From: a virus
Strand: one strand, 5' to 3'
DNA length: 64,000 bases
Virus record (IMG/VR): IMGVR_UViG_3300026484_000157
Location: 62,270-126,269 of that record
The translations under genes and the position numbers were made by a program. Position 1 is the first letter of the stretch, and every line of letters starts with the position of its first letter. Below are positions 7,954 to 21,214 of the stretch, one piece after another. The notes under the pieces were generated by a model. It saw nothing but the letters and a program-made list of their open reading frames with translations, was not told where the DNA came from and searched no databases.

Positions 7954-8628
7954 ATGGAAAAAATAATAGAACAAATGGCACATCTACAACATGCACTAAA
8001 TTCTAAGATACACCCAGAATGGTATAAGCAAGGAAATGACTGGGATACTGCAATCATGGTTGAGTCAGCAGAGTTGTCAGATTCTCTGCAATGGAAATGG
8101 TGGAAAAATATGGATGACGATTGGTCAAATGTAGAAGTGGAATTGGTAGATTTATTTCACTTCATACTATCTAAAATGATAGAAAAGAATAAGATGAATA
8201 TTGTGAACAAAGTGATAACTAGAGCACTTACAACATTCCAATTATCAAAGCCAATTGATGACAATGATATGAAAAGAGAACTAGTGCTTATGTTCAACAA
8301 ATCACTTGTACAAGCTACATTGGAAGATAAAATGCATGATGCAATTATGTATTGGTATAAAATGTGGCTTACTATTGGTAAAACAAAAGAAGATATCTTG
8401 AAACAATATTTTGTCAAGAACATTCTAAACACATTTAGACAAGACAATGGTTATAAAGATGGAAGTTATATCAAAGAATGGGTAGGTAAAGATGGGAGAA
8501 AATATGAGGACAATGTAATTGCATTTTACATTGCAGATGATTTAAAATTAGATGACACATTTCCAGATGAATTTGCTAAGGCATTGGATGAAGTTTATGC
8601 AGATACCAAAATTCATCATCTCAATTAA
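7954..8628 (+). CDS. dut: Dimeric all-alpha dUTPase (Campylobacter type)
   Basis: VESAEL, WKWWK, VELVDLFHF, KNILNTFRQDNGYK, EDN motifs. Confidence 0.9.
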   Translation: MEKIIEQMAHLQHALNSKIHPEWYKQGNDWDTAIMVESAELSDSLQWKWWKNMDDDWSNVEVELVDLFHFILSKMIEKNKMNIVNKVITRALTTFQLSKPIDDNDMKRELVLMFNKSLVQATLEDKMHDAIMYWYKMWLTIGKTKEDILKQYFVKNILNTFRQDNGYKDGSYIKEWVGKDGRKYEDNVIAFYIADDLKLDDTFPDEFAKALDEVYADTKIHHLN

Positions 8629-8841
8629 AACATATATCTCAGGTCTTATCCTGAGATATAAACCCCACTCTAAATATCTTCATTGTATGGATGGATCAAT
8701 AATAGAAATTAAACATACAATCACCAATAAGTGGATTTTCAGGAAATTTTATAATAACATATTGATTGCTGAAAAGTCATACAAGACGGAGAAAGAATTA
8801 TATAAAGATTCAGGAGTCTTATGAAACCCAAGGATAACAAA

Positions 8842-9099
8842 ATGTCAATATTAACAATTGAAAAAAATGCAATGATACAAATCACGAGTGACGAGCTAGA
8901 TACATACATTAAACATATAAAAAATCTAAAAATCGAACATGATCAATATGCAGTAGGATCAATTGATAATCCAAGACATATTGTGGTTGCTCAAAATCAA
9001 AAGATAATAGATTACTTAACTGAAACATTCCCACTTTCTAAGAAAGAAATTAAGAAAATTGCTTCATGTAACATGATCACATTAAAAGAAGGATACTGA
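8842..9099 (+). CDS. Hypothetical protein
   Basis: AAGGATAACAAAATG leader. Confidence 0.55.
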   Translation: MSILTIEKNAMIQITSDELDTYIKHIKNLKIEHDQYAVGSIDNPRHIVVAQNQKIIDYLTETFPLSKKEIKKIASCNMITLKEGY

Positions 9100-9101
9100 T
9101 A

Positions 9102-9926
9102 ATGGCAAACCATAAGATTAAGAAAGAATTTGAAGATTTAGAGATCTTTATCGAGGGTAACAACCCAATTGTTGAATATAAGGGTAAGTTCTATTGGATT
9201 GGAGAGGACAAATGTCCTTTTGATCATATAGACAATGTCAAAATTGAAAATCAAATAATTCCAGCATTTAGAAAATCTATTGGGATTCAACCACCAATAT
9301 CTGAGCCATATAACACTCACATGTCACAACACACTGAGTTCAAAGATGGAATTATATTAGATAAAGAATTCGGTTATCTTCCAAGTAATAGAAATCGAAT
9401 TTACAAGAAAATGCTCAATGACAACATAGATGAGGAATTCATTGTAACCAAATATGACGATGATAACAACCCAACTAGATATTGTATCAAGAATTCTTGT
9501 AACAAATGTGAATACAATGAGATCTGTAAACCAGAATTAGAAGAGATTCAATATGAAGGTCACAACCAATCAATAGTTGTATTTGATATTTCTGCCCAAG
9601 AACCAGTAATTGCAGCAGCAATAGTACATAGGGAGCCACGATGGTTGGAAACATTTAGAAACAGATCACAAAGAGAAGAATTAATTGATGTATTTCTAAA
9701 CATAGTAATTCAAGAAGAATTTGGTCTAGATATTAACCACCATACTGCTTATCAATATTGGGAATTCTTGGAATATATCGTACTAAATGAGGAACTGCTT
9801 AGTAGTTTAATCGATATGAATAATTCCTTTTATAGAATCAGAGCTAATGAGGAAGTTCCAGAATTAGAAGAGCAGATTAACTTCATGATAGACAAATATA
9901 AAGAATTTCTTAAAAGGTATAAATAA
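9102..9926 (+). CDS. Family A DNA polymerase fragment carrying palm motif A
   Basis: SIVVFDISAQEPVIAAAIVHREPRWLETFRN resembles the PolA pattern D.SQIE.R..A....D..L...F; preceded by a Cys cluster. Confidence 0.65.
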   Translation: MANHKIKKEFEDLEIFIEGNNPIVEYKGKFYWIGEDKCPFDHIDNVKIENQIIPAFRKSIGIQPPISEPYNTHMSQHTEFKDGIILDKEFGYLPSNRNRIYKKMLNDNIDEEFIVTKYDDDNNPTRYCIKNSCNKCEYNEICKPELEEIQYEGHNQSIVVFDISAQEPVIAAAIVHREPRWLETFRNRSQREELIDVFLNIVIQEEFGLDINHHTAYQYWEFLEYIVLNEELLSSLIDMNNSFYRIRANEEVPELEEQINFMIDKYKEFLKRYK

Positions 9927-10573
9927 TGAGTAAAGAACAAATCATCCAGAAAATAAAAGAGTCTTCTGAATATAAGGCTATTGAAGATGGACTGAAACTA
10001 CAAGTTGAAAACAATATAATTTCAGATTACAGAATTAATATAAGCGATGATTATATTAATTCGTTCAATGAAGATAGAACGACTGAGGTTAAGCTCATAT
10101 TAAACATTGATGTGATGCCAACTAACCCATTAAAGACAACAACTATTCAAGTGAATCCGAGACATGAGACATTGGATATGAAACCAAAATGGGGGAAAAA
10201 TGACATAGTCATACACAAGAAAACTGGATCATTAGGAGTTGTAGATAAAGATGTAAGTTACGAGAAATTCCCAGACTTCAATTGTTGGTGTGCTACTATT
10301 AACGGATTCATATATGACTGTAGAGATTGGGAATCAGCCCCATCTATTAACGGTAGAATTTGTTTGTTTAAAGATGGATCCATAACACTAGTGAATAATA
10401 TGAAAACTAGAAGATTAGTGACTGAAATCTCAAGTGGAACACACCCATATGATGCAATAATTAGAATATACAAAGATTTCGACCTATTTTATTCATCAGG
10501 GGATGCTCACATTGATTTCAGTAAAATATTTAGCAATAATGCATTCAACACTAAGGTAGGAAGACATGAATAA
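9926..10573 (+). CDS. Hypothetical protein
   Basis: 215-aa ORF, coupled start. Confidence 0.55.
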   Translation: MSKEQIIQKIKESSEYKAIEDGLKLQVENNIISDYRINISDDYINSFNEDRTTEVKLILNIDVMPTNPLKTTTIQVNPRHETLDMKPKWGKNDIVIHKKTGSLGVVDKDVSYEKFPDFNCWCATINGFIYDCRDWESAPSINGRICLFKDGSITLVNNMKTRRLVTEISSGTHPYDAIIRIYKDFDLFYSSGDAHIDFSKIFSNNAFNTKVGRHE

Positions 10574-10907
10574 TCAAATGACATCAACTGCACAATTCAC
10601 TATTGATGAATTATTTGCAATGAATGAATGCACGAATGGGACACCAATCAGAAATGAAGATGGATATTTAAAGAAATTTCTGCCTGATGACTGGTCTGAT
10701 TTTAAACATGATATTTTGATTAATGGACTTCGAGATCCAATTAAAATTGAGCTTAAAGATTCACTATATACAATAAGTGATGGAGTCCATCGGATAATAG
10801 CACTTAAGGAACTTCAAAACGAAGGGCTTTATGATAAGGATATTAAGTTAACTGTTTCAGTTACTGTATATAAGATCACAAACAAATTAAAATTCAAGGA
10901 TAACTAA
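10566..10907 (+). CDS. ParB/Srx-like N-terminal domain protein
   Basis: I..NGLRDPI...ISDGVHRIIAL. Confidence 0.7.
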   Translation: MNNQMTSTAQFTIDELFAMNECTNGTPIRNEDGYLKKFLPDDWSDFKHDILINGLRDPIKIELKDSLYTISDGVHRIIALKELQNEGLYDKDIKLTVSVTVYKITNKLKFKDN

Positions 10908-10908
10908 G

Positions 10909-11646
10909 ATGAAAACAACAAACATCATAATCGCACATGTTACAAACAAAGACATAACAACCCTATTAATCAATGGTGGATACAATGTACACCCATCGGT
11001 TGTGATTGGAACAATCATGGCAGGTAAAGGAGGAGATGACTCTTTCACTATCCATATTAATAAGGATAAAATAATCACTAAGCCAACTGCACAAGAGTTA
11101 GAAACACTTATGACTGCAGGTGTCGAAACTGTAGAGTTCGATGAACTAGTTAAACAATTCAAGCCAGAAGATGAAAGTCCATTTAAGTCATTATTTGATA
11201 TCATGGATAATATCATGAAAGAGCGATGTGAACAAGATCAGGCTGGATCTGGACTTACTCAAGGGAAGCCAGAGGAAGATACAACATCTAAACCGATAGA
11301 AAAACCAACAACATCTGAGGTTGCAGAAGATATCAACGAAAGCTTCTTTAAAAACAAACACAGAACACATTATCTAAAATGGGAAATTGGAAATGGTACA
11401 TCTATAAGATATTTCTTTTTATATGAGGACAAGCCAAAGTTAGAAGGCAAATGGGTAATTAAAAATCATGATGACAAGAAATTTCAAATATTTGAAAACA
11501 AACAAATTGCAATGTCGATGATTAGATCTCTTTGTCCATCAACGAAAGCATTGGAGATCACTGGCATTAGAAAACATGATATGTATATCAAGACAATCAT
11601 GGACGAGAACGGAGTTCTTATTAAAAAAGAAGAGCAAAAATGTTAA
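10909..11646 (+). CDS. Hypothetical protein
   Basis: 245-aa ORF with AAGGA SD. Confidence 0.55.
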   Translation: MKTTNIIIAHVTNKDITTLLINGGYNVHPSVVIGTIMAGKGGDDSFTIHINKDKIITKPTAQELETLMTAGVETVEFDELVKQFKPEDESPFKSLFDIMDNIMKERCEQDQAGSGLTQGKPEEDTTSKPIEKPTTSEVAEDINESFFKNKHRTHYLKWEIGNGTSIRYFFLYEDKPKLEGKWVIKNHDDKKFQIFENKQIAMSMIRSLCPSTKALEITGIRKHDMYIKTIMDENGVLIKKEEQKC

Positions 11647-11981
11647 AGGTCGGAACAAAATTCAACCCTAGAACAGAATCAATAGCTTCATCTGAAGTTA
11701 TTGGTGGATACACAGTCTACTCAAATGGTGATGGAGTATTTATTTCAAACTCAGATGGTGATCATAAGGTGGTCTTAGATGATCACAATGCATTCTGTGT
11801 ACAACAAATACTATCAACAATAATGAAGCCTAATTTTGGACCTTATGTACTAGAAAATGGTAAAGTTTACTATATTGTTAATGCTCTCAAAACTTCATTT
11901 ATTTTTGAATCTTTTGAAGATGTAGTTAGATTCACTTCAATCATAATGGACATCAGAACAATACTGTTAAAAGAAATCTAG
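11640..11981 (+). CDS. Hypothetical protein
   Basis: 113-aa ORF overlapping previous gene. Confidence 0.5.
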   Translation: MLKVGTKFNPRTESIASSEVIGGYTVYSNGDGVFISNSDGDHKVVLDDHNAFCVQQILSTIMKPNFGPYVLENGKVYYIVNALKTSFIFESFEDVVRFTSIIMDIRTILLKEI

Positions 11982-12031
11982 ATGTTTCAACAATTCCCAT
12001 TATAAATTAACCTGTTTAATTCAAGAGGAAA

Positions 12032-12066
12032 ACCTCAGCACAATTTCAGCTGAGGTGTGGTATAAT
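12032..12066 (+). promoter_or_regulatory. Hairpin followed by host-type extended -10 promoter (TGGTATAAT)
   Basis: ACCTCAGC/GCTGAGGT stem at 12032-12056; TGnTATAAT at 12058-12066. Confidence 0.55.
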
Positions 12067-12100
12067 TTTTATAGAAATTTGAGAAGAAAATCGTTTAATC

Positions 12101-12167
12101 TAGTATTAAAACTTTTGAAATTCAATTTTATAGGAATATAAGAATTAAACAAATCAAGGATAACAAC
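12101..12167 (+). promoter_or_regulatory. Conserved phage promoter plus leader (TAGTATTAAAA-N17-TATAGG...AAGGATAACAAC)
   Basis: Related copies near 3203, 4779, 6805, 13161, 13681, 19445, 20396, 22951, 32124, 36877, 43365, 48433, 49373, 53492, 55938, 57699, 57758 and 61948, all with exact 17-nt spacing. Confidence 0.85.
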
Positions 12168-13172
12168 ATGGCAACAAGAAGAGACTTAGACAGAACAATT
12201 TCGGCAATCGCATCAGGTATTTTACAAGTTATTGATACATATAATTTAACAGGTGATCTTCCATCAGGAAAAGATACAAACATTGAACCAAACATTGCTA
12301 AAATTTTCAACAAAGAATTTGGTTGGGCAATTGGTAGAGGCGATTATGAAACTGCAATCGATATGATCTCTGAATGGTACCAAATTTTGTTCCTTGAAAG
12401 AGCAGATAAATTGCTTGGGGAATATACACCATCTTGGGAAGAAGGACATATATCACCATTATTGGGATATTTAAAGCTTTCAATGATAAGAGCAGCACAA
12501 CAAGTATCAATTAAATTTACTAAAATTAGACAAAGAGAACAACAAGTCAACCCAATTGATGATGAATCTTACGATGATGCACTTAACAGAATAATGAACA
12601 CTCCAAAAAGTGGAAAGATCATTCATGAAAATGACCCTATGATATTAGAGTTGGAAGAAATTATCGAGTATTATGAAGCTAACCCATCTGAGAACAATGA
12701 TAAGAAACTTAAAAAAGCAAAAGAAAAACTAGATCTAATATTCAACCCAAAGAAAGTACTTCATGATGTAGATGTATTCTTAAATAAAGAGTTTGATGTT
12801 ATTGATGAAATTGCTTATGAGAGAATTCTTGCTGACCTTAAAAAGATAATCAAAGGTAGACAAAATTATGAAATCCAAATTAAAATTCTAGATTTATTGT
12901 TAGCAGACTTCGCTCCATCTGAAATTGCAAGATTATTAAATGTATCAGCAGCAAAAATATCACAAAGAAAGAAAACATTACTTGATGATATCACAAAACT
13001 AGCAAAAAAATATAGTGAAGAGGGTGATTCAACATTAGATGAGTTCCTTGAGGACAGACTAAGTAAGAAAAATTCTACTAAATCAAAATCTGGTGTTACT
13101 GGTAATAGAAAACAAGAGACTAATGTTGAGTGTCTTCTAACAACAGCAGCACTAATGGGAATTAAATTATAA
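12168..13172 (+). CDS. Putative phage sigma-factor-like protein
   Basis: C-terminal region-4-like HTH (FAPSEIARLLNVSAAKISQRKK); helical region-2-like N-half. Confidence 0.55.
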   Translation: MATRRDLDRTISAIASGILQVIDTYNLTGDLPSGKDTNIEPNIAKIFNKEFGWAIGRGDYETAIDMISEWYQILFLERADKLLGEYTPSWEEGHISPLLGYLKLSMIRAAQQVSIKFTKIRQREQQVNPIDDESYDDALNRIMNTPKSGKIIHENDPMILELEEIIEYYEANPSENNDKKLKKAKEKLDLIFNPKKVLHDVDVFLNKEFDVIDEIAYERILADLKKIIKGRQNYEIQIKILDLLLADFAPSEIARLLNVSAAKISQRKKTLLDDITKLAKKYSEEGDSTLDEFLEDRLSKKNSTKSKSGVTGNRKQETNVECLLTTAALMGIKL

Positions 13173-13218
13173 TCCAAACCAATTTATAAGAGCATAACCC
13201 AACAAAGGAGTTGCTCTT

Positions 13219-13680
13219 ATGCTACTAATACATGAAGTTCTTGAAAAAGAATGTAATATTCAAGTCGACCAAGACACCCCAAGATTAATATCTTCTCCTT
13301 TACGATCAGACTCATCACCATCATTTAGAGTATTCCCACCAGAATTCGATGATAATGGTGGTCTTGTATGCAACGGTGCATATGATTATGGTAAAGGTAA
13401 ATCATATTCTTGTTATTCATTTATTAAAGAATATCACCAGTATGAAACCAAGAGAGAAGTCCTTGATCACATTAAAGAAGTTTATGGGATAACAATGGAT
13501 GTAACATTCGAGGAATCTAAAAAGGACAAGGATCTACATGATAAAATTCAGATTATTGCCAATTCCAGATTCATTAACAATAATAAGAAGATTAAGGCTC
13601 TTGAAAAATCAGTAGTTACATATTATAGAGGTAACTCTGCCCAGATGGATTTAATAATTGAGAAGTCGTTAATTTTCTAA
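13219..13680 (+). CDS. Stand-alone primase zinc-binding-like domain (Cys-less CHC2 variant)
   Basis: ISSPLRSDSSPSFRVF...AYDYGKGK..S...FIKEY parallels CPFH.EKTPSF...CFGCG.GD.I.F. Confidence 0.55.
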   Translation: MLLIHEVLEKECNIQVDQDTPRLISSPLRSDSSPSFRVFPPEFDDNGGLVCNGAYDYGKGKSYSCYSFIKEYHQYETKREVLDHIKEVYGITMDVTFEESKKDKDLHDKIQIIANSRFINNNKKIKALEKSVVTYYRGNSAQMDLIIEKSLIF

Positions 13681-13746
13681 TTATTAAAAAGACCCAATTC
13701 AACTTTTATATAAAAATATAAACAAATCAAAAAAGGATAAGACAAA

Positions 13747-14145
13747 ATGGAAAATAATACAGCAATCCAACTTTCAGAACTACACAAACTAATGGAGATA
13801 AAAGATCAGCTTTCTAAAATGAAAGTATCAGAGCTAAATAACATTCTCATAGATAAAACTGCTGATTTAATGGTTAATGCAGATCTTAGTCAAATGGAAT
13901 ATGCAAAACATATTCAAAATGAAATTAATTCGCTTGTAACTGTAACTGCTCCACTTTCTGCTAAGCAAATATCAGAGTTGCCTATTAAAACTATAGTATC
14001 ATATGTAAAGGCATATTATGTAGTTACTAAAATTGACTGGAATAAAAATTATAGTGATGATGATGCAATGATTGATGTTGATTTCGCTTTTTATTCAGGA
14101 TTTACTGCAGAATTCTCAGAATTTGTAACTGGTATAATGGACTAA
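13747..14145 (+). CDS. Hypothetical protein
   Basis: Promoter and SD upstream. Confidence 0.6.
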   Translation: MENNTAIQLSELHKLMEIKDQLSKMKVSELNNILIDKTADLMVNADLSQMEYAKHIQNEINSLVTVTAPLSAKQISELPIKTIVSYVKAYYVVTKIDWNKNYSDDDAMIDVDFAFYSGFTAEFSEFVTGIMD

Positions 14146-14149
14146 CATT

Positions 14150-16018
14150 ATGGCTGATGTTTATTCTCTTGAAAAAGGTCTGGATCATCTTTATCCAGAA
14201 TATCAACTACAATATAAAGATAATATTGATGGGTTTAACAAGACATTTAATCCATCAATGATTGATGTGAATAAAACTATGTTCAAGAAATCTATGGAAA
14301 TGATAGAGCATCATAAATGGATGAAAGAATGTAAATTCACACTAGCAACATATACTGATCCAAAAGAGGATTATGAATTAGATATTGAAAAGTTTGACAA
14401 CATTGATCAGCTAATTGCTCTAATAGACGACCGATGTGAAATGCAAGACCCAGAGGATAACCCAGTCCTAAAAGAGCCAAAGAAAATTGTCGCATTCGAT
14501 TTAGAAACAACTGGTCTTAGAAACAGACATCAGAGAATTGGTGGTAAAAAAGAGTCACAAGTAGGTATTGTTGGAATATGTGTTGCATATTCTGAAACTG
14601 AGGGTTATTATATACCAATTAAACATAATGAGTTAGATGGCATTAAGAATTGGACTATTCAAGATGCAGTTAAGCTTATCAATTATTTCCAACAAGATAA
14701 CCATCTGGTAATATGGCACAATGCAATATACGATTTATTTGTAAGTATATCATCAGGTGTAACTTTGAATAAATCAATGAACCATGATACCTATTTATTA
14801 TGGAAGATGACATTTGAGGAAGAATTTAGCAATCTATTTCAATACGGACTAAAGCTCTTATCAGAAAGATTCCTTAAAAGAAAAATGCAGACAATTAACG
14901 ATCTGCTTGGTGTTGATGCGAAAGCACACATAGAATTTCAGAGATTACCATCTGTAAATGCAGTAACCTATGCAGTGTCTGATGCAACTAACACTTATGC
15001 ACTTTGGAAATATCTATTTAGCAAAAAATTCAGAAGAAACCCATATACTAAACAGCCAATAGCAACTAGACTGGAAATGCGATCTATCTATGATTCATTA
15101 TCAATGCTAAGTACTGGGATTCCAATAAACACAAGTCATGCAATCCCAATGCTGAAAACAATTTACAGAAGACAAATATTATTACAGAGTAAATTTGACC
15201 AATTGGTAGGTGATGGATTCACAGTAATAACTAGTGATGAAAAATGTGGAATGTATATTGGTAAAACAATAATGGGTGCTTGGGAAGAGTCAGGAAAAGA
15301 CAAAGATCAGGGATATAAATTTTTGGAAGAAAAATTTGGAATGAAGATGACTGTTAGAAATGGTGCAGGTGGAGTGAAAAAAGAGACATTCTCAAATGCT
15401 GATTCAGTTCTTGAAGCATTACTTAAATCTCTCCCAAATATGGATTTCATTAAAGATGAACAGAAGAAATCTTTAACATCAATCATTAAATATATACAAG
15501 CATATCGATCATTAGACCATGAAAGATCTGGATATCTTGGAATAATAAGATCAGTAACATTGGATGATAGAGGATATCCTTTTGTTCACAACTCGCTGAA
15601 CCTTAATGGTACCGACTGTGTAATAAAAGATACACCAATAAACATAAGAGTTAACAAATCTAATAAGCCAATATCCACGACGATGGACAAGCTAGATAGA
15701 TATTGTGATTATGATGATCTTGAGGGCGAATATGAGTTTAATGAATACATAGAAATTGAAACTATTGATGGCTGGGTACATATAACTCATTTTGTTACTA
15801 AACATAAAGACACAATTGAAATATCAACTAAATCAAGATCTATTGGTGTAGCAACTAGACATAGATTCATGAATGAAAATGACAGATGGATATATGCTAA
15901 TGAATTGAAAATTGGGGATTTTGTCAAAACAATAGATGGTTATGAAGAGGTTACAAAGATAATCAATTTAAAAGGACAAATGACATATGATATTGTCACC
16001 AACCACAAACAATTATAA
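14150..16018 (+). CDS. polA: Family A DNA polymerase N-part (3'-5' exonuclease plus thumb) fused to split-intein N-half
   Basis: ExoI AFDLETTG, ExoII WHNAIYD, YGLKLLS, ExoIII YAVSDA; LNLNGTD followed by intein block A CVIKDT. Confidence 0.88.
   Translation: MADVYSLEKGLDHLYPEYQLQYKDNIDGFNKTFNPSMIDVNKTMFKKSMEMIEHHKWMKECKFTLATYTDPKEDYELDIEKFDNIDQLIALIDDRCEMQDPEDNPVLKEPKKIVAFDLETTGLRNRHQRIGGKKESQVGIVGICVAYSETEGYYIPIKHNELDGIKNWTIQDAVKLINYFQQDNHLVIWHNAIYDLFVSISSGVTLNKSMNHDTYLLWKMTFEEEFSNLFQYGLKLLSERFLKRKMQTINDLLGVDAKAHIEFQRLPSVNAVTYAVSDATNTYALWKYLFSKKFRRNPYTKQPIATRLEMRSIYDSLSMLSTGIPINTSHAIPMLKTIYRRQILLQSKFDQLVGDGFTVITSDEKCGMYIGKTIMGAWEESGKDKDQGYKFLEEKFGMKMTVRNGAGGVKKETFSNADSVLEALLKSLPNMDFIKDEQKKSLTSIIKYIQAYRSLDHERSGYLGIIRSVTLDDRGYPFVHNSLNLNGTDCVIKDTPINIRVNKSNKPISTTMDKLDRYCDYDDLEGEYEFNEYIEIETIDGWVHITHFVTKHKDTIEISTKSRSIGVATRHRFMNENDRWIYANELKIGDFVKTIDGYEEVTKIINLKGQMTYDIVTNHKQL
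15617..16015 (+). mobile_element. Split intein N-fragment (133 aa)
   Basis: Block A Cys1; block B VATRHRF; W..A.EL..GD; start of block F TYDI; then stop with no HN terminus. Confidence 0.85.
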
Positions 16019-16835
16019 GACAATAAAATCATATACAAATGGCTTCACAAATATAAAGAAATTTGTGAAGCTACTACACACTAATAAAGGTTACAACTTT
16101 AAGAGATACAACTTCATGTATCCAATCAGATTCAAGATAGTTCTGTTCTTATTCATAATGAGGGAGCAGAACTCAATATATAAGTATAAAATTCCAGAAA
16201 ACTGTAAAATGAGATATGATACTGATAAAATCATAATAACATGTCCATTTCATGGAGACTTCAGTCAAAGAATAATAAAACACATAAGTGGTAATGGTTG
16301 CCCAAAATGTGCATCAAATATACGGCTGACAAATGAAGAATTCGACTCGAGATTGAAGTTAATAGATAAAAGTTTGATAAGATTAGATGAATATATTTCA
16401 ATGGAACATGGACTAGATATAAAATGTATGAGATGTGGAGATATATTTAATAAAACTCCAAATATATTATTATATGGTAATAGTGGATGTAGTGTATGCA
16501 GATCTAAAGAATCTAAAGGTTCATTAGAAATTTCACATCAACTAAATCTATTCAAAGTAAGGTATATTAAAGAATATAGATTCAAGGATATAGCAAGAAT
16601 GCCATTTGATTTTTATTTGCCAGATTATAATATATGCATCGAATATGATGGGGAACAACACTTCACATATAATAATCCATTTAGTTCGTTAGTAGGAAAT
16701 ACTATTAAAAATGACCAAATCAAGAACAATTTCTGTGCTAAGAACAATATCAAATTAATCAGGATACCCTATACAAGTTATAAGGATATAAGATTAATAA
16801 TAGTAACAATAAAGGACAACAATGAAAAGATATGA
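15987..16835 (+). CDS. Free-standing putative homing endonuclease (Zn ribbons plus Vsr/DUF559-like nuclease)
   Basis: CPFHG.F.Q...H..G.GCPKC, second CxxC pair, FDFYLP...IEYDGEQHF, D..KN..C..NNIKLIRIPY; lies between the intein halves. Confidence 0.82.
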   Translation: MILSPTTNNYKTIKSYTNGFTNIKKFVKLLHTNKGYNFKRYNFMYPIRFKIVLFLFIMREQNSIYKYKIPENCKMRYDTDKIIITCPFHGDFSQRIIKHISGNGCPKCASNIRLTNEEFDSRLKLIDKSLIRLDEYISMEHGLDIKCMRCGDIFNKTPNILLYGNSGCSVCRSKESKGSLEISHQLNLFKVRYIKEYRFKDIARMPFDFYLPDYNICIEYDGEQHFTYNNPFSSLVGNTIKNDQIKNNFCAKNNIKLIRIPYTSYKDIRLIIVTIKDNNEKI

Positions 16836-17115
16836 TTATATTGCAAATGGGTTTGTTTGCCATAACACTGGACGGTATTCCAATGCTAAAACAAGATTTA
16901 ATAGATTAACTATCAATGTCACAAAAACTGGTAAAGTCAATATAAAATTTAAAGATTCATCTATCCTACCAAATATGCAAGGACTATCAGGTAGACCATA
17001 TATTACGAAACCTGCTAAACAACTTAAGTCTATTCCAATATCTATCGAGCAAGACATAACAAGTTTAAATGATAAGGTTGAAGAGTTATTCAGAGAAGAA
17101 ATACTAAAATTATAA
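16822..17115 (+). CDS. polA: Split-intein C-fragment (15 aa) plus PolA C-extein (TGRYS...PNMQ)
   Basis: Own SD (AAAGGACAACAATG); MKRYDYIANGFVCHN then Thr+1; TGRYSN and PNMQ match PolA TGRLSS..PNLQ. Confidence 0.85.
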   Translation: MKRYDYIANGFVCHNTGRYSNAKTRFNRLTINVTKTGKVNIKFKDSSILPNMQGLSGRPYITKPAKQLKSIPISIEQDITSLNDKVEELFREEILKL

Positions 17116-17136
17116 TAATCAAGAAGGATAACAACA

Positions 17137-19440
17137 ATGAAATTAGATGAGTTTCAACAAAAGATAGTTGATAGCAACCAAGATCAATCAACTCTAGTTA
17201 CTATTACGGCAGGTGCAGGATGTGTAGCATATGACACCCCAATTGTAGTAAAAATAAAAGATAACATACCACAAGATGTTTATTATAAGCTTTCCAAAAT
17301 ATTAAATGATAAAATGATAACCACAATAGAAATTTCGAAGTTATTCGAAATCAAGGATCTTCTTGAATATATAGAAATAGACACACCTGATGGTTGGCAA
17401 CCGATAGATGATGTGTTTGAAACTGGTGATAAAAAGTCATATAACATAACGACTGAGACTGGTGATATAACTGTTTCTGAAGATCATTGGTTATTAGACA
17501 ACAACAATAACTGGTCTTCTGTCGCTTCGCTTCATGTTGATGATATAATACAAACCAGAGATGGGAACGAGAAGATTATATCGAAGAAATCAATTGGTAC
17601 AATAAAAACTATGGACATTACTGTTGGACATGAGAATCATAGATATTACACTCAAAATATAATATCACACAACAGTGGTAAAAGCACTGTTTTCGCAAAT
17701 AAAATAGCTAGGTTAATTTTAGAAGGTCATGCAAAACCTGATGAGATAATAACACTAACCTTCACAAATAAAGCAGCACGGGATATTAAAAGTAAAATAA
17801 AAGCACTACTTCCAAAGGGTGCTGAACTTCCACATGTATCAACAATTCATAGCTTATTTATCAAACTACTAAGAGATTTCAAAGTCAATCCTATTGTAAT
17901 GAATGAATGGGGCAATATTTTAACTTTGAGATCAATTATTGAACAACATTACCAATTTGATACAAAAGGTGAGCTTACTGCATTTACTAGAGATATTCTT
18001 GCTTATGTAGATCAATATCAATTATCTGCTCCTGATATCAACATTGATGACTGGAAATTATCTGATTATGTTGAAGATTGTACAATCACAAGTAAAAAAT
18101 TTAACAAAATTTACAAAGAATATGATAAGTTTAAGAGGGAGAAGAATTTATGGTCGTATAACGATTTAATTTCATCTAGAGTAAAAGAAGTAATCGATTT
18201 TAATAAAATTAATAGTTCAACCAAATATTTATTCAATGATGAGGCTCATGATGAGACATTGGCAGAATTACTTCTAATAAGAGATATAGCAAGTCAAAAT
18301 ATCTTATATAACATACAAGATAACTGCCAAGAAATTTATGGGTGGAGATTTAGTCGTGCTGATCTATTAGCAGATAAATCCTTTTGGGCAGATCACTTCA
18401 ATAAATATGAAGAGTACAAACTTCTGAAAAATTATAGATCAACTGAAAATATATTGAAAGTGTCGAATTTATATAGATCACATCTGGATGATATCCAATT
18501 AATACCCACTAAAGAAAACTTGAAGGGATCAGTTAAAATATCTCAGGTGGAAATGGAAACTCATGAAGGTAAATATATCGCAGTTGAGATAAAGAAATTA
18601 CTGGAAGAGGGTACTGCTCCAAAAGACATAACAATATTGGTAAGATCAAATATGTTCATTAAATCAATACTTGAGCCACACTTAATAGAATCAAATATAC
18701 CTTACACAATTGATACTCCAAAATCAAAAAAGAAGATGTTTGAATCTCCAATAAACAAGATATTCCTATCATTTATGGAAATATATTCGAATAACGAGAA
18801 TTTACTAAGCATAATCTCAATATGTGATTATTATATTGGTGTTGGTGCAGGATCTAAAAAGACTCTAATGGATTCATTTATTAACACTTCAATGTTAACA
18901 CCAGATAAGAAATTCGATAACATAAGATACACTTTTAATAACATATGTGAGTTTTCAACTCAATATTCATCTGCTTCAAAATTGCCAGTAATACTAGATT
19001 ACTTTGAATCTTTAATAAGACAATTCATAAAAACTTCTGAATACAATGAAAATAAGATCAATCTCATAAGAAAAACTATCACAAATTATGTGTATACAAT
19101 CTATGAAGATTATCCATCTTACACAATCCATGAGATTTTTGCTGAAATTATAACACAAATTGACTCATTTGAAGATGATGCTATGAATAAGGTTAAAATC
19201 ATGACATATTATGGTGCAAAAGGATTATCACTTCCATATGTATTTGTATCAGATATGTCATTAAAAGCACCTAAATCGAATAGTGATAGTGACAATTCAT
19301 TATATGTAGCATTATCTAGGGCTGAAACAAGAATGTATATTGTTTCATCAAGTATAAAAATTAACAGAAGTTTTGGCAAAATGAAACAAAATATCCCATC
19401 AATATGGACTAAAACATATAACAAGCTTGTTGGTGGTTAA
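17137..19440 (+). CDS. uvrD: UvrD/PcrA-like SF1 helicase with cis mini-intein
   Basis: Spliced P-loop AGAG|SGKS, LTFTNKAA, STIHS, DEAHD, NYRS, AKGL, LYVALSRA. Confidence 0.9.
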   Translation: MKLDEFQQKIVDSNQDQSTLVTITAGAGCVAYDTPIVVKIKDNIPQDVYYKLSKILNDKMITTIEISKLFEIKDLLEYIEIDTPDGWQPIDDVFETGDKKSYNITTETGDITVSEDHWLLDNNNNWSSVASLHVDDIIQTRDGNEKIISKKSIGTIKTMDITVGHENHRYYTQNIISHNSGKSTVFANKIARLILEGHAKPDEIITLTFTNKAARDIKSKIKALLPKGAELPHVSTIHSLFIKLLRDFKVNPIVMNEWGNILTLRSIIEQHYQFDTKGELTAFTRDILAYVDQYQLSAPDINIDDWKLSDYVEDCTITSKKFNKIYKEYDKFKREKNLWSYNDLISSRVKEVIDFNKINSSTKYLFNDEAHDETLAELLLIRDIASQNILYNIQDNCQEIYGWRFSRADLLADKSFWADHFNKYEEYKLLKNYRSTENILKVSNLYRSHLDDIQLIPTKENLKGSVKISQVEMETHEGKYIAVEIKKLLEEGTAPKDITILVRSNMFIKSILEPHLIESNIPYTIDTPKSKKKMFESPINKIFLSFMEIYSNNENLLSIISICDYYIGVGAGSKKTLMDSFINTSMLTPDKKFDNIRYTFNNICEFSTQYSSASKLPVILDYFESLIRQFIKTSEYNENKINLIRKTITNYVYTIYEDYPSYTIHEIFAEIITQIDSFEDDAMNKVKIMTYYGAKGLSLPYVFVSDMSLKAPKSNSDSDNSLYVALSRAETRMYIVSSSIKINRSFGKMKQNIPSIWTKTYNKLVGG
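17221..17673 (+). mobile_element. Cis mini-intein (151 aa, no endonuclease) in Walker A
   Basis: Starts CVAYDT, block B VSEDH, ends YYTQNIISHN followed by Ser. Confidence 0.92.
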
Positions 19441-19507
19441 TTTATAGTTAAAACTTCTAAATCCTGATTTTATAAGAACATAACAAATTAAAACTCAGGA
19501 TAACAAC

Positions 19508-20398
19508 ATGTCAGAATTTAAAAAACTAACACTTAGACAACTAGGCTTCATGGATCTATGGATGGAGACGATCAGAGAAAATAATAGAGTGAACCATAAA
19601 ATTGCACAAAGTTCAATATATTGGGGAACTCATATAGATACAACGACTGATTTCTTGTCGTTATTATCAATGTCAGAGGAGCTACCAACATTCGATTACA
19701 ATAGAATGACATTATCACACATAATAGACTCATTAGTAGAAGTCAATGCAATCATAGTATTAGATCCAATCAAGATGATATATAAAGTAACTAACGATAT
19801 GATAATACATATGTCAACAAAGAAAACAAGATTCGAGAGAGGGCAAGATAAAATATTCACAGCTGTCAATCTTAAAATATTTAGAGATTGGGTTAACAGC
19901 ACAAGAATAACTGGAGATACTATAGTTAGTTACAACTCATTCATGGACTCAACATCTGATGAAACATTTAGAGAAATTAAGGAATCTCTTAAAGGCTGTA
20001 AAGAACATAAGAAATTCCTCAAAGGTAAAAGCCAAGAGTTCTTAGACAAATATGAAGATGGATTTTTAGCAAAAATGTCCTATAGCCATCTGAGATACCT
20101 TGTAACCAGATTAAGCGATGCTAAGCTACTGACTAAATATAAACCAAAAGGAACAAGAAACATTTATACAGTTACCCCAGAATTTGTTGATGTATTAGGA
20201 AGACATAAAATCGCTTTTGCTGAAACTCCAGTTTATACTTATATAAAACCAAAAAAGAAGAGAGTAAAAGAGATCGAGCTAAAAACTGAGGATCTAGATA
20301 CATTAATAGAAGAACTGATGAATATGAGAAGTGGTAATTCTAACAAATGTAGAATAGATGCTGATAATACCATCATTGAGTTAAGTTTCAAACAATAG
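19508..20398 (+). CDS. Hypothetical protein, possible winged-helix repeats
   Basis: Behind conserved promoter and leader; two L..L....+..Y.VT segments. Confidence 0.55.
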   Translation: MSEFKKLTLRQLGFMDLWMETIRENNRVNHKIAQSSIYWGTHIDTTTDFLSLLSMSEELPTFDYNRMTLSHIIDSLVEVNAIIVLDPIKMIYKVTNDMIIHMSTKKTRFERGQDKIFTAVNLKIFRDWVNSTRITGDTIVSYNSFMDSTSDETFREIKESLKGCKEHKKFLKGKSQEFLDKYEDGFLAKMSYSHLRYLVTRLSDAKLLTKYKPKGTRNIYTVTPEFVDVLGRHKIAFAETPVYTYIKPKKKRVKEIELKTEDLDTLIEELMNMRSGNSNKCRIDADNTIIELSFKQ

Positions 20399-20459
20399 TA
20401 TTAAAATTTTTGAAATTCAATTTTATAAGAACATAAGATAAAAATCAAAGGATAACAAC

Positions 20460-20852
20460 ATGAAATTAACAAAAAAACAATCGGACATTTTAAACAACTG
20501 GCTTCAAATAACTCAGGGTAGTTGTGGTGCAGATACATGGGACAAGCTTGGACAAGATAATCACAGCTTCGCAGACATAAATGATATAACTGAAGTTTCA
20601 AAAGATTACAGTAAACCTCAAATTATTGGAATTGTAGCATCATTGGTAGACAAAGGTCTTATAATGCTAGATCCAGATGCTACAAAAAACAATAAGAGCA
20701 AAGTATGGTGGATTTGTGATGAAACGATTGATATGATGATCAAACTGGAATCTGATGAGTCATCAGAACCAAAGAAAGAAACCGCAGAACCAGAATTTGA
20801 TGACTTCACTGATGATGGCTCATTAGAAACACTAATGGAATTGGTGGGTTAA
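20460..20852 (+). CDS. Hypothetical protein, possible winged-helix
   Basis: Conserved promoter and leader; QIIGIVASLVDKGLI. Confidence 0.55.
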   Translation: MKLTKKQSDILNNWLQITQGSCGADTWDKLGQDNHSFADINDITEVSKDYSKPQIIGIVASLVDKGLIMLDPDATKNNKSKVWWICDETIDMMIKLESDESSEPKKETAEPEFDDFTDDGSLETLMELVG

Positions 20853-20854
20853 TT

Positions 20855-21214
20855 ATGGCAAAGCAAATATTAAGAAAAGAATTATACAAAATCGTTTCTG
20901 CTGAAATAACAGAGGAACGATTAGCAAAGTTACCAGTTTGGGCACAGCGAGAAATTATGGCACTATCATCAAAAATTGAGAGACTTAACAATATGTTAGA
21001 TAATACAGATCCAACTGATTTATGGATAGACCCACCAGTAGGAGATAAGAAAAGATATTTAGATCCACATTCGAGATTAGTGTTCAGAACAGATCATAAA
21101 ACTGAAATATCAATCCATATGCCACATGGATCAAACAGAGTAAGAATCAGTAAGGATACATGTGGAGAAATTTTCATGATTCCAACTGGTGGTAATACTA
21201 TGGAGGTATTATAA
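20855..21214 (+). CDS. Hypothetical phage protein
   Basis: KLPVWAQREI motif; contiguous ORF. Confidence 0.55.
   Translation: MAKQILRKELYKIVSAEITEERLAKLPVWAQREIMALSSKIERLNNMLDNTDPTDLWIDPPVGDKKRYLDPHSRLVFRTDHKTEISIHMPHGSNRVRISKDTCGEIFMIPTGGNTMEVL

Follow-up and report, generated by a model that had tools for sequence, protein, structure and literature searches.

Family A DNA polymerases (PolA) are textbook single-chain 'right hands', and the locus described here raises the question of whether such an enzyme can be divided among several non-collinear genes. The window, that is, the whole stretch of 64,000 nt that was analysed, is part of a complete phage record of ~126 kb (CheckV 100%; ends overlapping by ~125 nt). 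An earlier note, made from the letters of the window, had proposed a PolA of several subunits, put together in part through splicing and in part by non-covalent contacts, another piece of which would lie elsewhere in the genome. PolA is the sole DNA polymerase detected in the genome and is coded by four genes, designated N, A, B and C. Comparison of their sequences leads us to regard it as highly likely that the replicative PolA of this phage is an obligate multi-subunit enzyme, in which four gene products would form a composite active site and N would be restored by trans-splicing.

The N gene is interrupted and comprises the following features.

14150..15616, + strand: N subunit, N-extein, 489 aa; 3'-5' exonuclease and thumb, ends ...LNLNGTD
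15617..16018, + strand: intein N-fragment, 133 aa and stop; Cys1, block-B-like 'ATRH', block-F-like 'TYDIVTNH'
15987..16835, + strand: homing-endonuclease-like gene, free-standing, 282 aa as longest ORF; start position uncertain
16822..16866, + strand: intein C-fragment, 15 aa, MKRYDYIANGFVCHN; ends ...GFVCHN
16867..17115, + strand: N subunit, C-extein, 82 aa and stop; TGRYS, PNMQ and a ~35-aa tail
16867-16881, + strand: TGRYS of the C-extein
16969-16980, + strand: PNMQ of the C-extein

The ORF at 14150-16018 (622 aa) consists of the N-extein followed by the intein N-fragment, and that at 16822-17115 (97 aa) of the intein C-fragment followed by the C-extein. The earlier note had predicted a spliced product of 489 + 82 aa ending soon after TGRYS and PNMQ, and the sequence features that it named were all found in place. 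The exonuclease domain of the N-extein matches PF01612 (E 3.1e-7; 30.8 bits, cut-off 23.6), as nothing else in the genome does, and displays FDLETTG, HNAIYD and YAVSD, which we take to be the motifs DxE, NxxxD and YxxxD. The N-extein also matches positions 616-970 of the DNA polymerase profile phrog_17 (E 2.8e-25). When the N family is compared with full-length PolA by hhalign (99.8%, E 4.4e-28), the alignment covers template columns 61-488 and extends across the PolA TGRFS and the NLQ-type motif. The C-extein ORF alone gave nothing meaningful against the PDB; in an alignment with contiguous relatives, its residues T1, R3, N36, Q38 and G39 are invariant in five of five sequences. Searches of phage records with the N piece, and likewise with the B piece, gave ordinary PolAs only, at 22-30% identity. 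Judged by these motifs and matches, N is the exonuclease, thumb, TGR.S and PN.Q portion of a PolA.

The junctions of the interruption read GTD/CVIKD... and ...VCHN/TGRYS (slash, splice point), so that the intein begins with Cys1 and ends in His-Asn, with Thr at +1. At exactly the same point the uninterrupted 572-aa N of a relative reads ...YIGTD/TLRF..., and the intein N-fragment is missing from the N genes of relatives. Two inteins occur in this 6-kb stretch, the other being a contiguous 151-aa intein in the neighbouring UvrD helicase. The N-fragment is 31% identical to the latter over ~135 aa, aligning to its residues 1-140, and the C-fragment aligns to its last 14 residues (138-151). The gene between the two fragments overlaps the ends of both flanking ORFs and matches phrog_559 (E 4.8e-46) and the homing endonuclease phrog_9084 (5e-23), with weak Pfam matches to DUF2726, DUF723 and DUF4379; it has no paralogue in this genome. 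The intein of N would have been split by a homing-endonuclease gene; the break falls between blocks F and G, ~11-14 residues short of the intein's C-terminus. This is a putative 'S11-like' site and differs from the canonical break between blocks B and F, which leaves C-fragments of ~35-50 aa (the usual lengths according to a table in a 2025 intein review).

The unusual break site makes splicing competence uncertain. The fracture of N may be unhealed, the intein fragments being catalytically dead and acting, if they act at all, as a non-covalent clamp, in which case the enzyme would comprise five polypeptides and not four; we consider this doubtful, though it deserves serious weight. Consistent with it are the 15-aa length of the C-fragment and a block B that reads T-x-H (ATRH) and not the usual T-x-x-H, and the 2025 review, in the portion drawn on here, gives short-C-fragment 'S11' splits only as synthetic and about half of the synthetic atypical splits as inactive. 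Engineered S11 splits with 6-aa C-fragments nevertheless do splice according to the same portion of that review, and the intein has kept its terminal residues together with the block F Asp. Moreover, the junction between the endonuclease gene and the C-fragment is present, with two differences, in a contig of another study's run, which shows that more than one sample has the arrangement. The C-fragment has an AAGGA site of its own, 5 nt upstream of its ATG. Most likely, the 133-aa and 15-aa fragments would associate and splice, so that the exteins of 489 and 82 aa would be joined as an N subunit of 571 aa.

Motif A had been placed by the earlier note in an ORF upstream of N, for which the following features were recorded.

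9102..9926, + strand: subunit A gene, 274 aa; homologue family, natural fusions, hhalign
9483-9527, + strand: aa 128-142, conserved Cys cluster in the ~100-aa insertion of A, C128-x4-C133-x2-C136-x5-C142
9573-9605, + strand: aa 158-168, motif A strand/helix VVFDISAQEP of A; DISAQE is D162-E167

The protein is laid out as an N-terminal head, a palm strand (PAFRKSIG), the ~100-aa insertion, motif A and a helical tail of ~85 aa. The CxxxxCxxCxxxxxC pattern that had been noticed in it corresponds to C128, C133, C136 and C142, in what may be a zinc-finger-like insertion. The reported lack of intein ends holds as well, there being neither a Cys, Ser or Thr at position 1 nor an HN-plus-nucleophile terminus. 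Used alone, as a single sequence or as a profile, A gave no polymerase match in Pfam, PHROGs or PDB sequences; a tblastn search of 50,697 phage records with ORF 9102 gave nothing at E<=0.01, and scans of IMG/VR with the single A and B proteins found no relative. An AlphaFold model of A alone (pLDDT 80, pTM 0.48) had no significant fold match in Foldseek (best E 1.3). An exhaustive profile search recovered a family of at least 42 homologue clusters (50% identity), mostly of 250-315 aa. Among 39 aligned sequences D162 and Q166 are invariant (39/39), and E167, P168, C128, C133 and C136 are conserved in at least 90%. The top hhalign match of the family, short and weak, is PolA motif A (P 3.5e-4, probability 37%, template columns 508-537). 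In a fusion-containing alignment, the A segment is aligned to PolA motif A inside a 99.5% match. A motif A regular expression is by itself unspecific: over all six reading frames of the genome it matched twice, once spuriously. The case for ORF 9102 is built not on the motif alone but on the conservation of its family, on the natural fusions and on the comparison of profiles. The earlier note had named the absence of a PolA profile match as evidence against this ORF. For Pfam and the PDB that absence is formally what was found, and it is outweighed by the other evidence, from which ORF 9102 is identified at the sequence level as the motif A piece.

As the earlier note had observed, motifs B and C are missing from the window. 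It had suggested searching the genome for fragments that carry them, and where it foresaw one further piece two were found, 42-45 kb before the first base of the window.

G000:C1:17268-18050: B (fingers, motif B), 260 aa; PF00476
G000:C1:19454-20074: C (motif C, HDE), 206 aa; conserved HDE, hhalign

B matches PF00476 over positions 199-325 (E 1.6e-14; 49.2 bits, cut-off 34.3) and residues 394-528 of Bst Pol I (E 2e-8). Besides the motif B O-helix, whose residues R57, K61, L65 and Y69 are conserved in four of four sequences, it contains the N..QG helix; compared together with fusions, it aligns to the PolA profile over columns 511-689 (hhalign 99.5%, E 2.5e-22). On this evidence, B is the motif B and N..QG piece of a PolA, as far as can be judged from homology. 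C alone, as a single sequence or as a profile, gave no polymerase match in Pfam, PHROGs or PDB sequences. Its top hhalign match is PolA motif C, a short and weak one (columns 683-738, P 5.5e-4 to 1.7e-3, probability 16-30%), which begins on the profile right where the B match ends, and H29, D30 and E31 are invariant in nine of nine C-family sequences with identities to this C down to 18%. The statistics for C, weak when taken alone, are joined by the adjacency of B and C in a relative and by a complex model (both below), and together these identify C as the motif C piece. Homologues of B and C were few: beyond the phage's own proteins, the comparisons included three B pieces at E<=1e-5 and eight C pieces. 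Both B and C carry lineage-specific tails of ~70-120 aa.

These genes might be the decaying remnants of an intact PolA gene, or an artefact of assembly or rearrangement, as their non-collinear order, the distances of tens of kilobases between them (up to ~54 kb) and the blank Pfam search with ORF 9102 could suggest. This reading, which the earlier note had raised against itself, is scarcely credible and is already contradicted. In the complete genome, profile searches found no match anywhere to PF00136, PF07733 or PF03175 and a single match each to PF01612 and PF00476; no intact PolA, PolB, PolC/DnaE or protein-primed PolB was detected. Each of the pieces is an open frame with its own ATG and SD-like site, A included. 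Independent contigs at 23-45% identity have these genes separate too, with the catalytic residues kept. Near-identical contigs from other studies' runs, short and of low depth, fall on the A, N and endonuclease/C-fragment regions; two 'joints' with sides of 22-25 letters were not counted.

The arrangement is also seen in a second phage, G001 (30-45% amino-acid identity), which again has four separate ORFs for the subunits and whose N, of 572 aa, lacks an intein. All four families are single-copy in both of the complete or near-complete genomes examined, and the cyclic order N-B-C-A is the same in the two; the B and C genes are adjacent in G001, where a copy of the homing endonuclease (36% identical) adjoins the A gene. 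In six of ten metagenome loci the genes are likewise separate and non-collinear, the A gene lying 2-6 kb upstream of the N gene on the same strand, these six being the loci that hold both genes (two of the loci, L033 and L034, appear to be the same sequence). An alignment-based scan returned 25 B-type loci, among which G001 was the one split relative. The remaining 24 were 23 ordinary contiguous PolAs of 640-1037 aa and a 326-aa ORF with motifs A, B and C (L023). The catalytic residues are invariant although the relatives are otherwise highly divergent.

The four families tile the full-length PolA profile in order (N 61-488, A 508-537, B 511-689, C 683-738). Two natural proteins, P0042 (500 aa) and P0043 (512 aa), fuse an N-half resembling ORF 9102 to a C-half that is PF00476-positive (E 2.7e-20 and 3.1e-17, respectively), and both stop where B stops. 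These A+B fusions provide a Rosetta-stone link between ORF 9102 and the Pfam-positive fingers piece. An AlphaFold model of an A+B fusion (pLDDT 64, pTM 0.38) gave nothing significant in Foldseek (best E 0.12, TM ~0.1), with Bst, Klenow and Taq Pol I chains at the top of the list. The pieces were also modelled together, as the earlier note had proposed. With residues 1-100 of C as partner of A, B and the C-extein, a median ipSAE of 0.81 was obtained over three runs and 0.04 for the best of three controls, a pass that, PolA structures having already been solved, marks likeness to the PolA palm and is not independent proof of binding. The mark used is passed by 58 of 80 solved complexes and two of 110 mismatched pairs. 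The alignments were shallow (four rows for B, five for the C-extein and three for C), the thumb and exonuclease were left out, and a predictor that has learnt from solved PolA folds can give high scores on that account; the runs share at least 46% of contacts, with a partner pLDDT of at least 55. In the model, residues 27-49 and 61-77 of C contact residues 154-167 of A (the motif A strand) and 163-179 of B, so that the motif C hairpin is predicted to be set against the motif A strand. When an unrelated protein took the place of A, the score fell to 0.04.

It is conceivable that the pieces are functional and no longer form one polymerase, N being a stand-alone exonuclease or DNA-binding factor, A, B and C having other roles and the host synthesizing the DNA. 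The heads, tails and insertions of each piece, which are lineage-specific and have no detectable homologues, would fit such a history. The invariant residues, however, are exactly those for polymerisation (the D/E of motif A, R/K/Y of motif B, N..QG and the HDE of motif C). The single-copy status of all four families, the fusion of A to B and a complex model that appears to rebuild the PolA palm likewise argue against it, and we regard it as improbable. Still less probable is the joining of A, B and C to N by cryptic split inteins or trans-splicing introns to give a single-chain PolA. This genome does tolerate inteins, but the intein end signatures seen in N are missing from A, B and C, and the heads and tails of A and B are retained, not removed, in the natural fusions. 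At E<=1, Rfam searches found no intron, group I included, in 8500-19800 of the window and none in 16500-21000 of the genome. A separate Rfam snoRNA match near the pieces (E 0.11) was judged to be due to chance.

We therefore return to a multi-subunit enzyme. The anatomy of the four genes, the homology of their products to consecutive segments of PolA and the conservation of both the separate genes and their catalytic residues are evident from the comparisons above. From these we infer that the products assemble, that N is spliced and that the complex has polymerase activity, and the proposal of the earlier note is supported by the additional pieces, the A family, the A+B fusions and the relatives. 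N would proofread through its exonuclease and would also provide the thumb and the palm segment that contains TGRYS and PNMQ. The motif A aspartate would come from A, on a palm strand, together with the zinc-finger-like insertion, and the fingers, with the O-helix and N..QG helix, from B. C would complete the palm with its last strand and with the HDE hairpin of motif C. As motif A is on A and motif C on C, the two catalytic carboxylates would reside on different polypeptides, with the dNTP-binding helix on a third, B. The lineage-specific heads and tails at all break points are probably docking elements. With moderate confidence, we propose a wider picture: a lineage of uncultivated phages, represented by the at least 42 A clusters, would possess a heterotetrameric PolA with an active site drawn from three polypeptides. 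Among its docking modules would be a tail domain homologous between B and C, and the Cys-cluster insertion, which would clasp the hairpin of motif C. The genes would have been scattered and reordered after the breaks, and the fourth subunit would here be finished by a natural 'S11-type' intein whose C-fragment has 15 residues, a format that has until now come only from engineering.

If this is correct, the catalytic core of PolA tolerates fragmentation at three defined sites, and the break points and docking tails could serve in split-polymerase engineering (conditional polymerases, sensors, orthogonal replication). The locus would also be a concrete case of 'gene fracture then uncoupling' by way of homing endonucleases. 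Should the intein of 133 + 15 aa prove active, it would represent a short-C-fragment format occurring in nature, of use where synthetic peptides are to be ligated to the C-termini of proteins. Surveys that keep PolA matches above 200-350 aa or require PF00476 would see only the B piece and miss A and C.

Placed end to end, the pieces give the same order of domains and motifs as single-chain PolA (E. coli Klenow, Bst/Taq large fragment, T7 gp5; PF00476 and PF01612): Exo I-III, thumb, TGR.S, PN.Q, motif A D..S..E, motif B R...K...L...Y, N..QG and motif C HDE, where the motif names and Klenow numbering applied to the pieces are those we take to be in general use. The difference is that no single polypeptide here, or in G001, holds the polymerase domain, which is spread over four separate ORFs; this sets the system apart and does not exclude homology. 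The domain is cut three times, into thumb/palm-N, palm motif A, fingers and palm motif C, and in contrast to single-chain PolA has the Cys-cluster insertion before motif A, the ~85-aa tail after it and the ~70-120-aa tails of B and C.

In the literature consulted, the only natural PolA split found reported is one of exonuclease from polymerase over two genes, and a polymerase domain in three or more genes is not described, although the supplements of the cited papers might list fragments. In T7-like cyanophages such as S-SBP1, PolA is split into exo and pol in adjacent genes with predicted non-covalent reassembly, a split described in the part of the paper cited here as the first seen in PolAs, from a set in which sequences of <350 aa were discarded (Czernecki et al., 2023; PMC10201439). 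The present phage likewise has a PolA from more than one gene with predicted non-covalent reassembly; unlike S-SBP1, it keeps exonuclease and thumb together on the 489-aa extein, and the cuts fall inside the catalytic domain itself, leaving pieces of 206-274 aa in place of a single exo/pol division.

Fractured genes, in which split-intein halves flank a free-standing homing endonuclease, were described at 26 loci, mainly in replication genes of phage and environmental DNA, with a model that predicts later genomic uncoupling of the gene parts (Dassa et al., 2009; PMC2677866). N resembles these in having an intein fragment on each half, the expected end residues and an endonuclease ORF between; it differs in that the break is near the intein C-terminus and not at the usual endonuclease-domain site, and a family A polymerase is not among the hosts named in the portion of their text considered here. 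Essential polymerases rebuilt from separately encoded parts, as inferred here, include the T4-like gp43 (PolB) in two genes and the split inteins of cyanobacterial DnaE and N. equitans PolB (cited in PMC2677866, as far as that text was drawn on), as well as the two-subunit PolB of PhiKZ, for which part of a preprint reports a stable complex by cryo-EM (Basu et al., 2026). Those enzymes belong to families B and C and are made of two parts, collinear or healed by an intein, whereas the PolA described here would be a family A enzyme in four parts.

Sequence comparison indicates that this phage encodes a family A replicase in four non-collinear genes, with all catalytic motifs intact and spread over different polypeptides, and that this four-gene arrangement is conserved across a divergent lineage of uncultivated phages. 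The earlier note had proposed a PolA of several subunits, joined partly by splicing and partly non-covalently; that reading is strengthened here and extended to four genes conserved in relatives, whose products would assemble into one active polymerase, with N restored by splicing in this phage. A functional multi-subunit enzyme appears very probable. Because one intein is fractured, this phage has five ORFs instead of four genes' worth. The pieces are termed N (exonuclease, thumb and TGRYS/PNMQ segment), A, B and C (with motifs A, B and C, respectively), and the relevant features are

window 9102-9926: A, 274 aa
window 14150-16018: N-extein, 489 aa, with a PolA-type 3'-5' exonuclease (PF01612, E 3.1e-7); directly after ...LNLNGTD, an intein N-fragment of 133 aa starting with Cys
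window 15987-16835: homing-endonuclease-like gene (phrog_559, E 4.8e-46)
window 16822-17115: intein C-fragment of 15 aa (...GFVCHN), then an 82-aa extein
window 17137-19440: UvrD/Rep-type helicase gene, directly downstream of N (PF00580, E 1e-28; PF13361, E 4.9e-22)
window about 17221-17673: contiguous 151-aa mini-intein in the helicase P-loop (GAG/CVAYD...IISHN/SGKST)
own genome 17268-18050: B, 260 aa, enclosing the DNA_pol_A match
own genome 19454-20074: C, 206 aa, LATFLAIHDEWDIIID, found by motif scan

ORF 14150-16018 matches positions 616-970 of 1445 of phrog_17, a phage DNA polymerase profile (E 2.8e-25), and the 82-aa extein starts with TGRYS and contains PNMQ. In a distant relative N is a single uninterrupted protein of 572 aa, reading ...YIGTD/TLRF... 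at exactly the break point, which confirms both the junction and the 489 + 82 aa arithmetic put forward for the spliced product. No group I intron was found at E ≤ 1 in window 8500-19800. The intein N-fragment is 31% identical to the mini-intein of the adjoining helicase, on which the N-fragment aligns with residues 1-140 and the C-fragment with residues 138-151; this alignment places the endonuclease gene between blocks F and G, leaving the 15-aa C-fragment. Since the catalytic end residues are intact, the N intein probably splices in trans. The natural atypical split inteins treated in a 2025 review (AceL-TerL, GOS-TerL) all have a short N-fragment, whereas here the C-fragment is short; inteins with a short C-fragment ('S11') are given there as synthetic, and several of them splice.

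The earlier note also placed a further piece elsewhere in the genome, and two were found. The whole-genome search with the DNA_pol_A Pfam model that it had suggested gave a single place (G000:C1:17409-17819, E 1.6e-14, model positions 199-325/381), in B and with motif B. Residues 394-528 of Bst Pol I align with B, from just past motif A to just short of motif C, and B carries R57-x3-K61-x3-L65-x3-Y69 and NFAVQG. L65 is the equivalent of Klenow F762; Leu occupies this position in all four aligned B sequences, so that the lineage falls into the 'Leu762' class, the commonest among the virome PolA sequences of Nasko et al. (2018).

C is the second gene downstream of B; the two are 42.2-42.8 kb (C) and 44.2-45.0 kb (B) upstream of the window's first base. 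Between them is a gene for a PIF1/Dda-like SF1 helicase (own genome 18109-19452; L043:1610-2950; PF05970, E 9.3e-25). A phage relative at 30-45% amino-acid identity, G001, has no homologue of this helicase at E < 1e-5; there the B gene is followed by a 47-base gap and then the C gene. In nine members of the C family, of 182-206 aa and with identity to own C down to 18%, H29, D30, E31, D37 and F70-D71-x-E73-x-D75 are invariant. Profile-profile comparison was made against an alignment built from 18 distinct contiguous phage PolAs. There the C family matches best at the motif C strand, in columns 683-738, directly after the end of the B match (511-689); the match is weak (P 5.5e-4 to 1.7e-3, probability 16-30%) but in the right place, and tentatively identifies C as the motif C segment.

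ORF 9102-9926 does contain the motif A and Cys cluster described for it, as VVFDISAQEP and C-x4-C-x2-C-x5-C. The earlier note would have counted the lack of a PolA profile match for this ORF against its reading, and A alone does give no Pfam, PHROG-polymerase or PDB match, but this is outweighed by other lines of evidence; an intact PolA elsewhere was not found, the one PF00476 match lying in B. An exhaustive HMMER search recovered 42 related clusters, nearly all of 250-315 aa, so that A represents a conserved family of stand-alone proteins; no homologue was detected among the GenBank phage records. D162 and Q166 are invariant in 39 aligned members, and E167, P168, C128, C133 and C136 are at least 90% conserved. 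The Cys cluster (window 9483-9527) thus has three of its four Cys conserved to at least 90%; many members have a second CxxC...C cluster near the N-terminus, which own A lacks. The family's best local profile match is PolA motif A (P 3.5e-4, probability 37%). Among the members, P0042 (500 aa) and P0043 (512 aa) each run from an A-like part into a B-like part (GDFH..., R..AK..L..YGG, GR.IY.P, YNYPIQ) and end where B ends; the latter half of each matches DNA_pol_A (E 2.7e-20 and 3.1e-17, respectively). These natural fusions link A and B to one enzyme, and the alignment in which they are included matches PolA at 99.5%, beginning at motif A and stopping just short of motif C.

The N family occupies columns 61-488 of the PolA alignment (99.8%, E 4.4e-28), followed by A (508-537), B (~540-689) and C. 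This order defines three cuts: N/A after PN.Q, A/B after the 'F..G' behind motif A, and B/C between the N..QG helix and motif C. Extra sequence is present at every cut, namely an N tail of ~35 aa, an A head of ~45 aa and an A tail of ~85 aa (retained in the A+B fusions), and tails of ~70 aa in B and ~120 aa in C. These heads and tails are probably docking elements. The B and C tails have a related module of ~40 residues in common (hhalign 88.9%, P 2.4e-6), consisting of a helix, [E/P]xG[N/D] and a strand within the last ~85 aa of either protein; the two may dock as paired domains.

Decaying remnants or an artefact would also yield separate pieces; this explanation was rejected, given relatives with the same separate genes, the start sites of the pieces and the absence of any other detected polymerase. 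G001, of 93.8 kb and with direct terminal repeats (CheckV 79%), has ~48 proteins in common with own genome at 25-49% identity. N (572 aa, without intein), B (276 aa), C (204 aa) and A (272 aa) each form a single-copy ORF of their own there, in the same cyclic order N-B-C-A. The A profile retrieved ten metagenome loci, four of them only 1.3-3.3 kb; the other six are long enough for both genes (L033, L034, L038, L039, L040 and L042, the first two apparently one sequence), and each of them has an uninterrupted N gene 2-6 kb downstream of the A gene, with both genes on one strand, in the non-collinear order of own genome. In own genome every piece has a separate ATG and SD-like AAGGA/GGGGA site; a single exonuclease domain and a single PF00476 match were found, but nothing that matches PolB, PolIII-alpha or protein-primed PolB. 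The record (126,269 bases, of which the window is 62270-126269; G+C ~31%; almost all long ORFs on the + strand; CheckV 100%) repeats its initial ~125 bases at its end and is therefore circular or terminally redundant and complete, the source class being 'linear'. Near-identical short contigs that fall on A, N and the endonuclease/C-fragment region occur in runs from three studies, two of the runs labelled hydrothermal vent metagenome; one run may be the record's own source.

Modelling, likewise proposed earlier, was carried out on A, B, the C-extein of N and the first 100 residues of C, whose tail stayed outside the model; C was the partner being scored. The ipSAE was 0.81 (median of three runs), while the best of three controls gave 0.04; of 80 solved complexes 58 reach the tool's mark, and of 110 mismatched pairs 2 do. 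Contact agreement between runs was at least 46% and partner pLDDT at least 55, and an unrelated protein in place of A abolished the score. In the model, C 27-49 (HDE hairpin) and 61-77 (last strand) meet the motif A strand (A 154-167) and the last helix of B (163-179), and the Cys-cluster insertion (A 115-134) also contacts the hairpin. The pieces can accordingly be interpreted as a PolA palm; since PolA structures are already solved, the model is not independent evidence of binding. When A is modelled by itself, confidence is generally good but falls in some segments, one of them the motif A strand (157-163), which fits a need for partner strands.

In this lineage, replication genes seem to gain and lose inteins and endonuclease genes freely. 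Immediately upstream of A, G001 has an endonuclease gene from the same family as that in N, and the helicases of G001 and L033/L034 are without the mini-intein. An endonuclease-like ORF of 546 aa is present in L002 (2222-3862). The 726-aa G001 homologue (L005, 36363-38543) of the 359-aa ribonucleotide-reductase-beta-like protein (own genome 13589-14668) suggests by its size an intein or a fusion. A 153-aa ORF (window 13219-13680; 150 aa in G001) matches phrog_12622 (DNA primase) weakly (E 1.2e-4) and only in the N-terminal part of the profile (positions 45-141/415); it may be what is left of a further replication gene, or one part of such a gene after a split.

Literature searches of the main texts of papers turned up no case in which the polymerase domain of a family A enzyme is distributed over at least three genes. 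Czernecki et al. (PMC10201439) describe PolAs of T7-like cyanophages divided once, between exonuclease and polymerase domains, as the first split known for this family; their data set leaves out sequences under 350 aa. Family B and family C polymerases in two parts are already known, for example from the cases cited by Dassa et al. (2009; PMC2677866). The split intein with a free-standing endonuclease at N corresponds to the general 'fractured gene' arrangement outlined by the same authors, in whose model the gene parts may later uncouple; fracture followed by uncoupling may likewise have given rise to the other three cuts and to the scattering of the genes.
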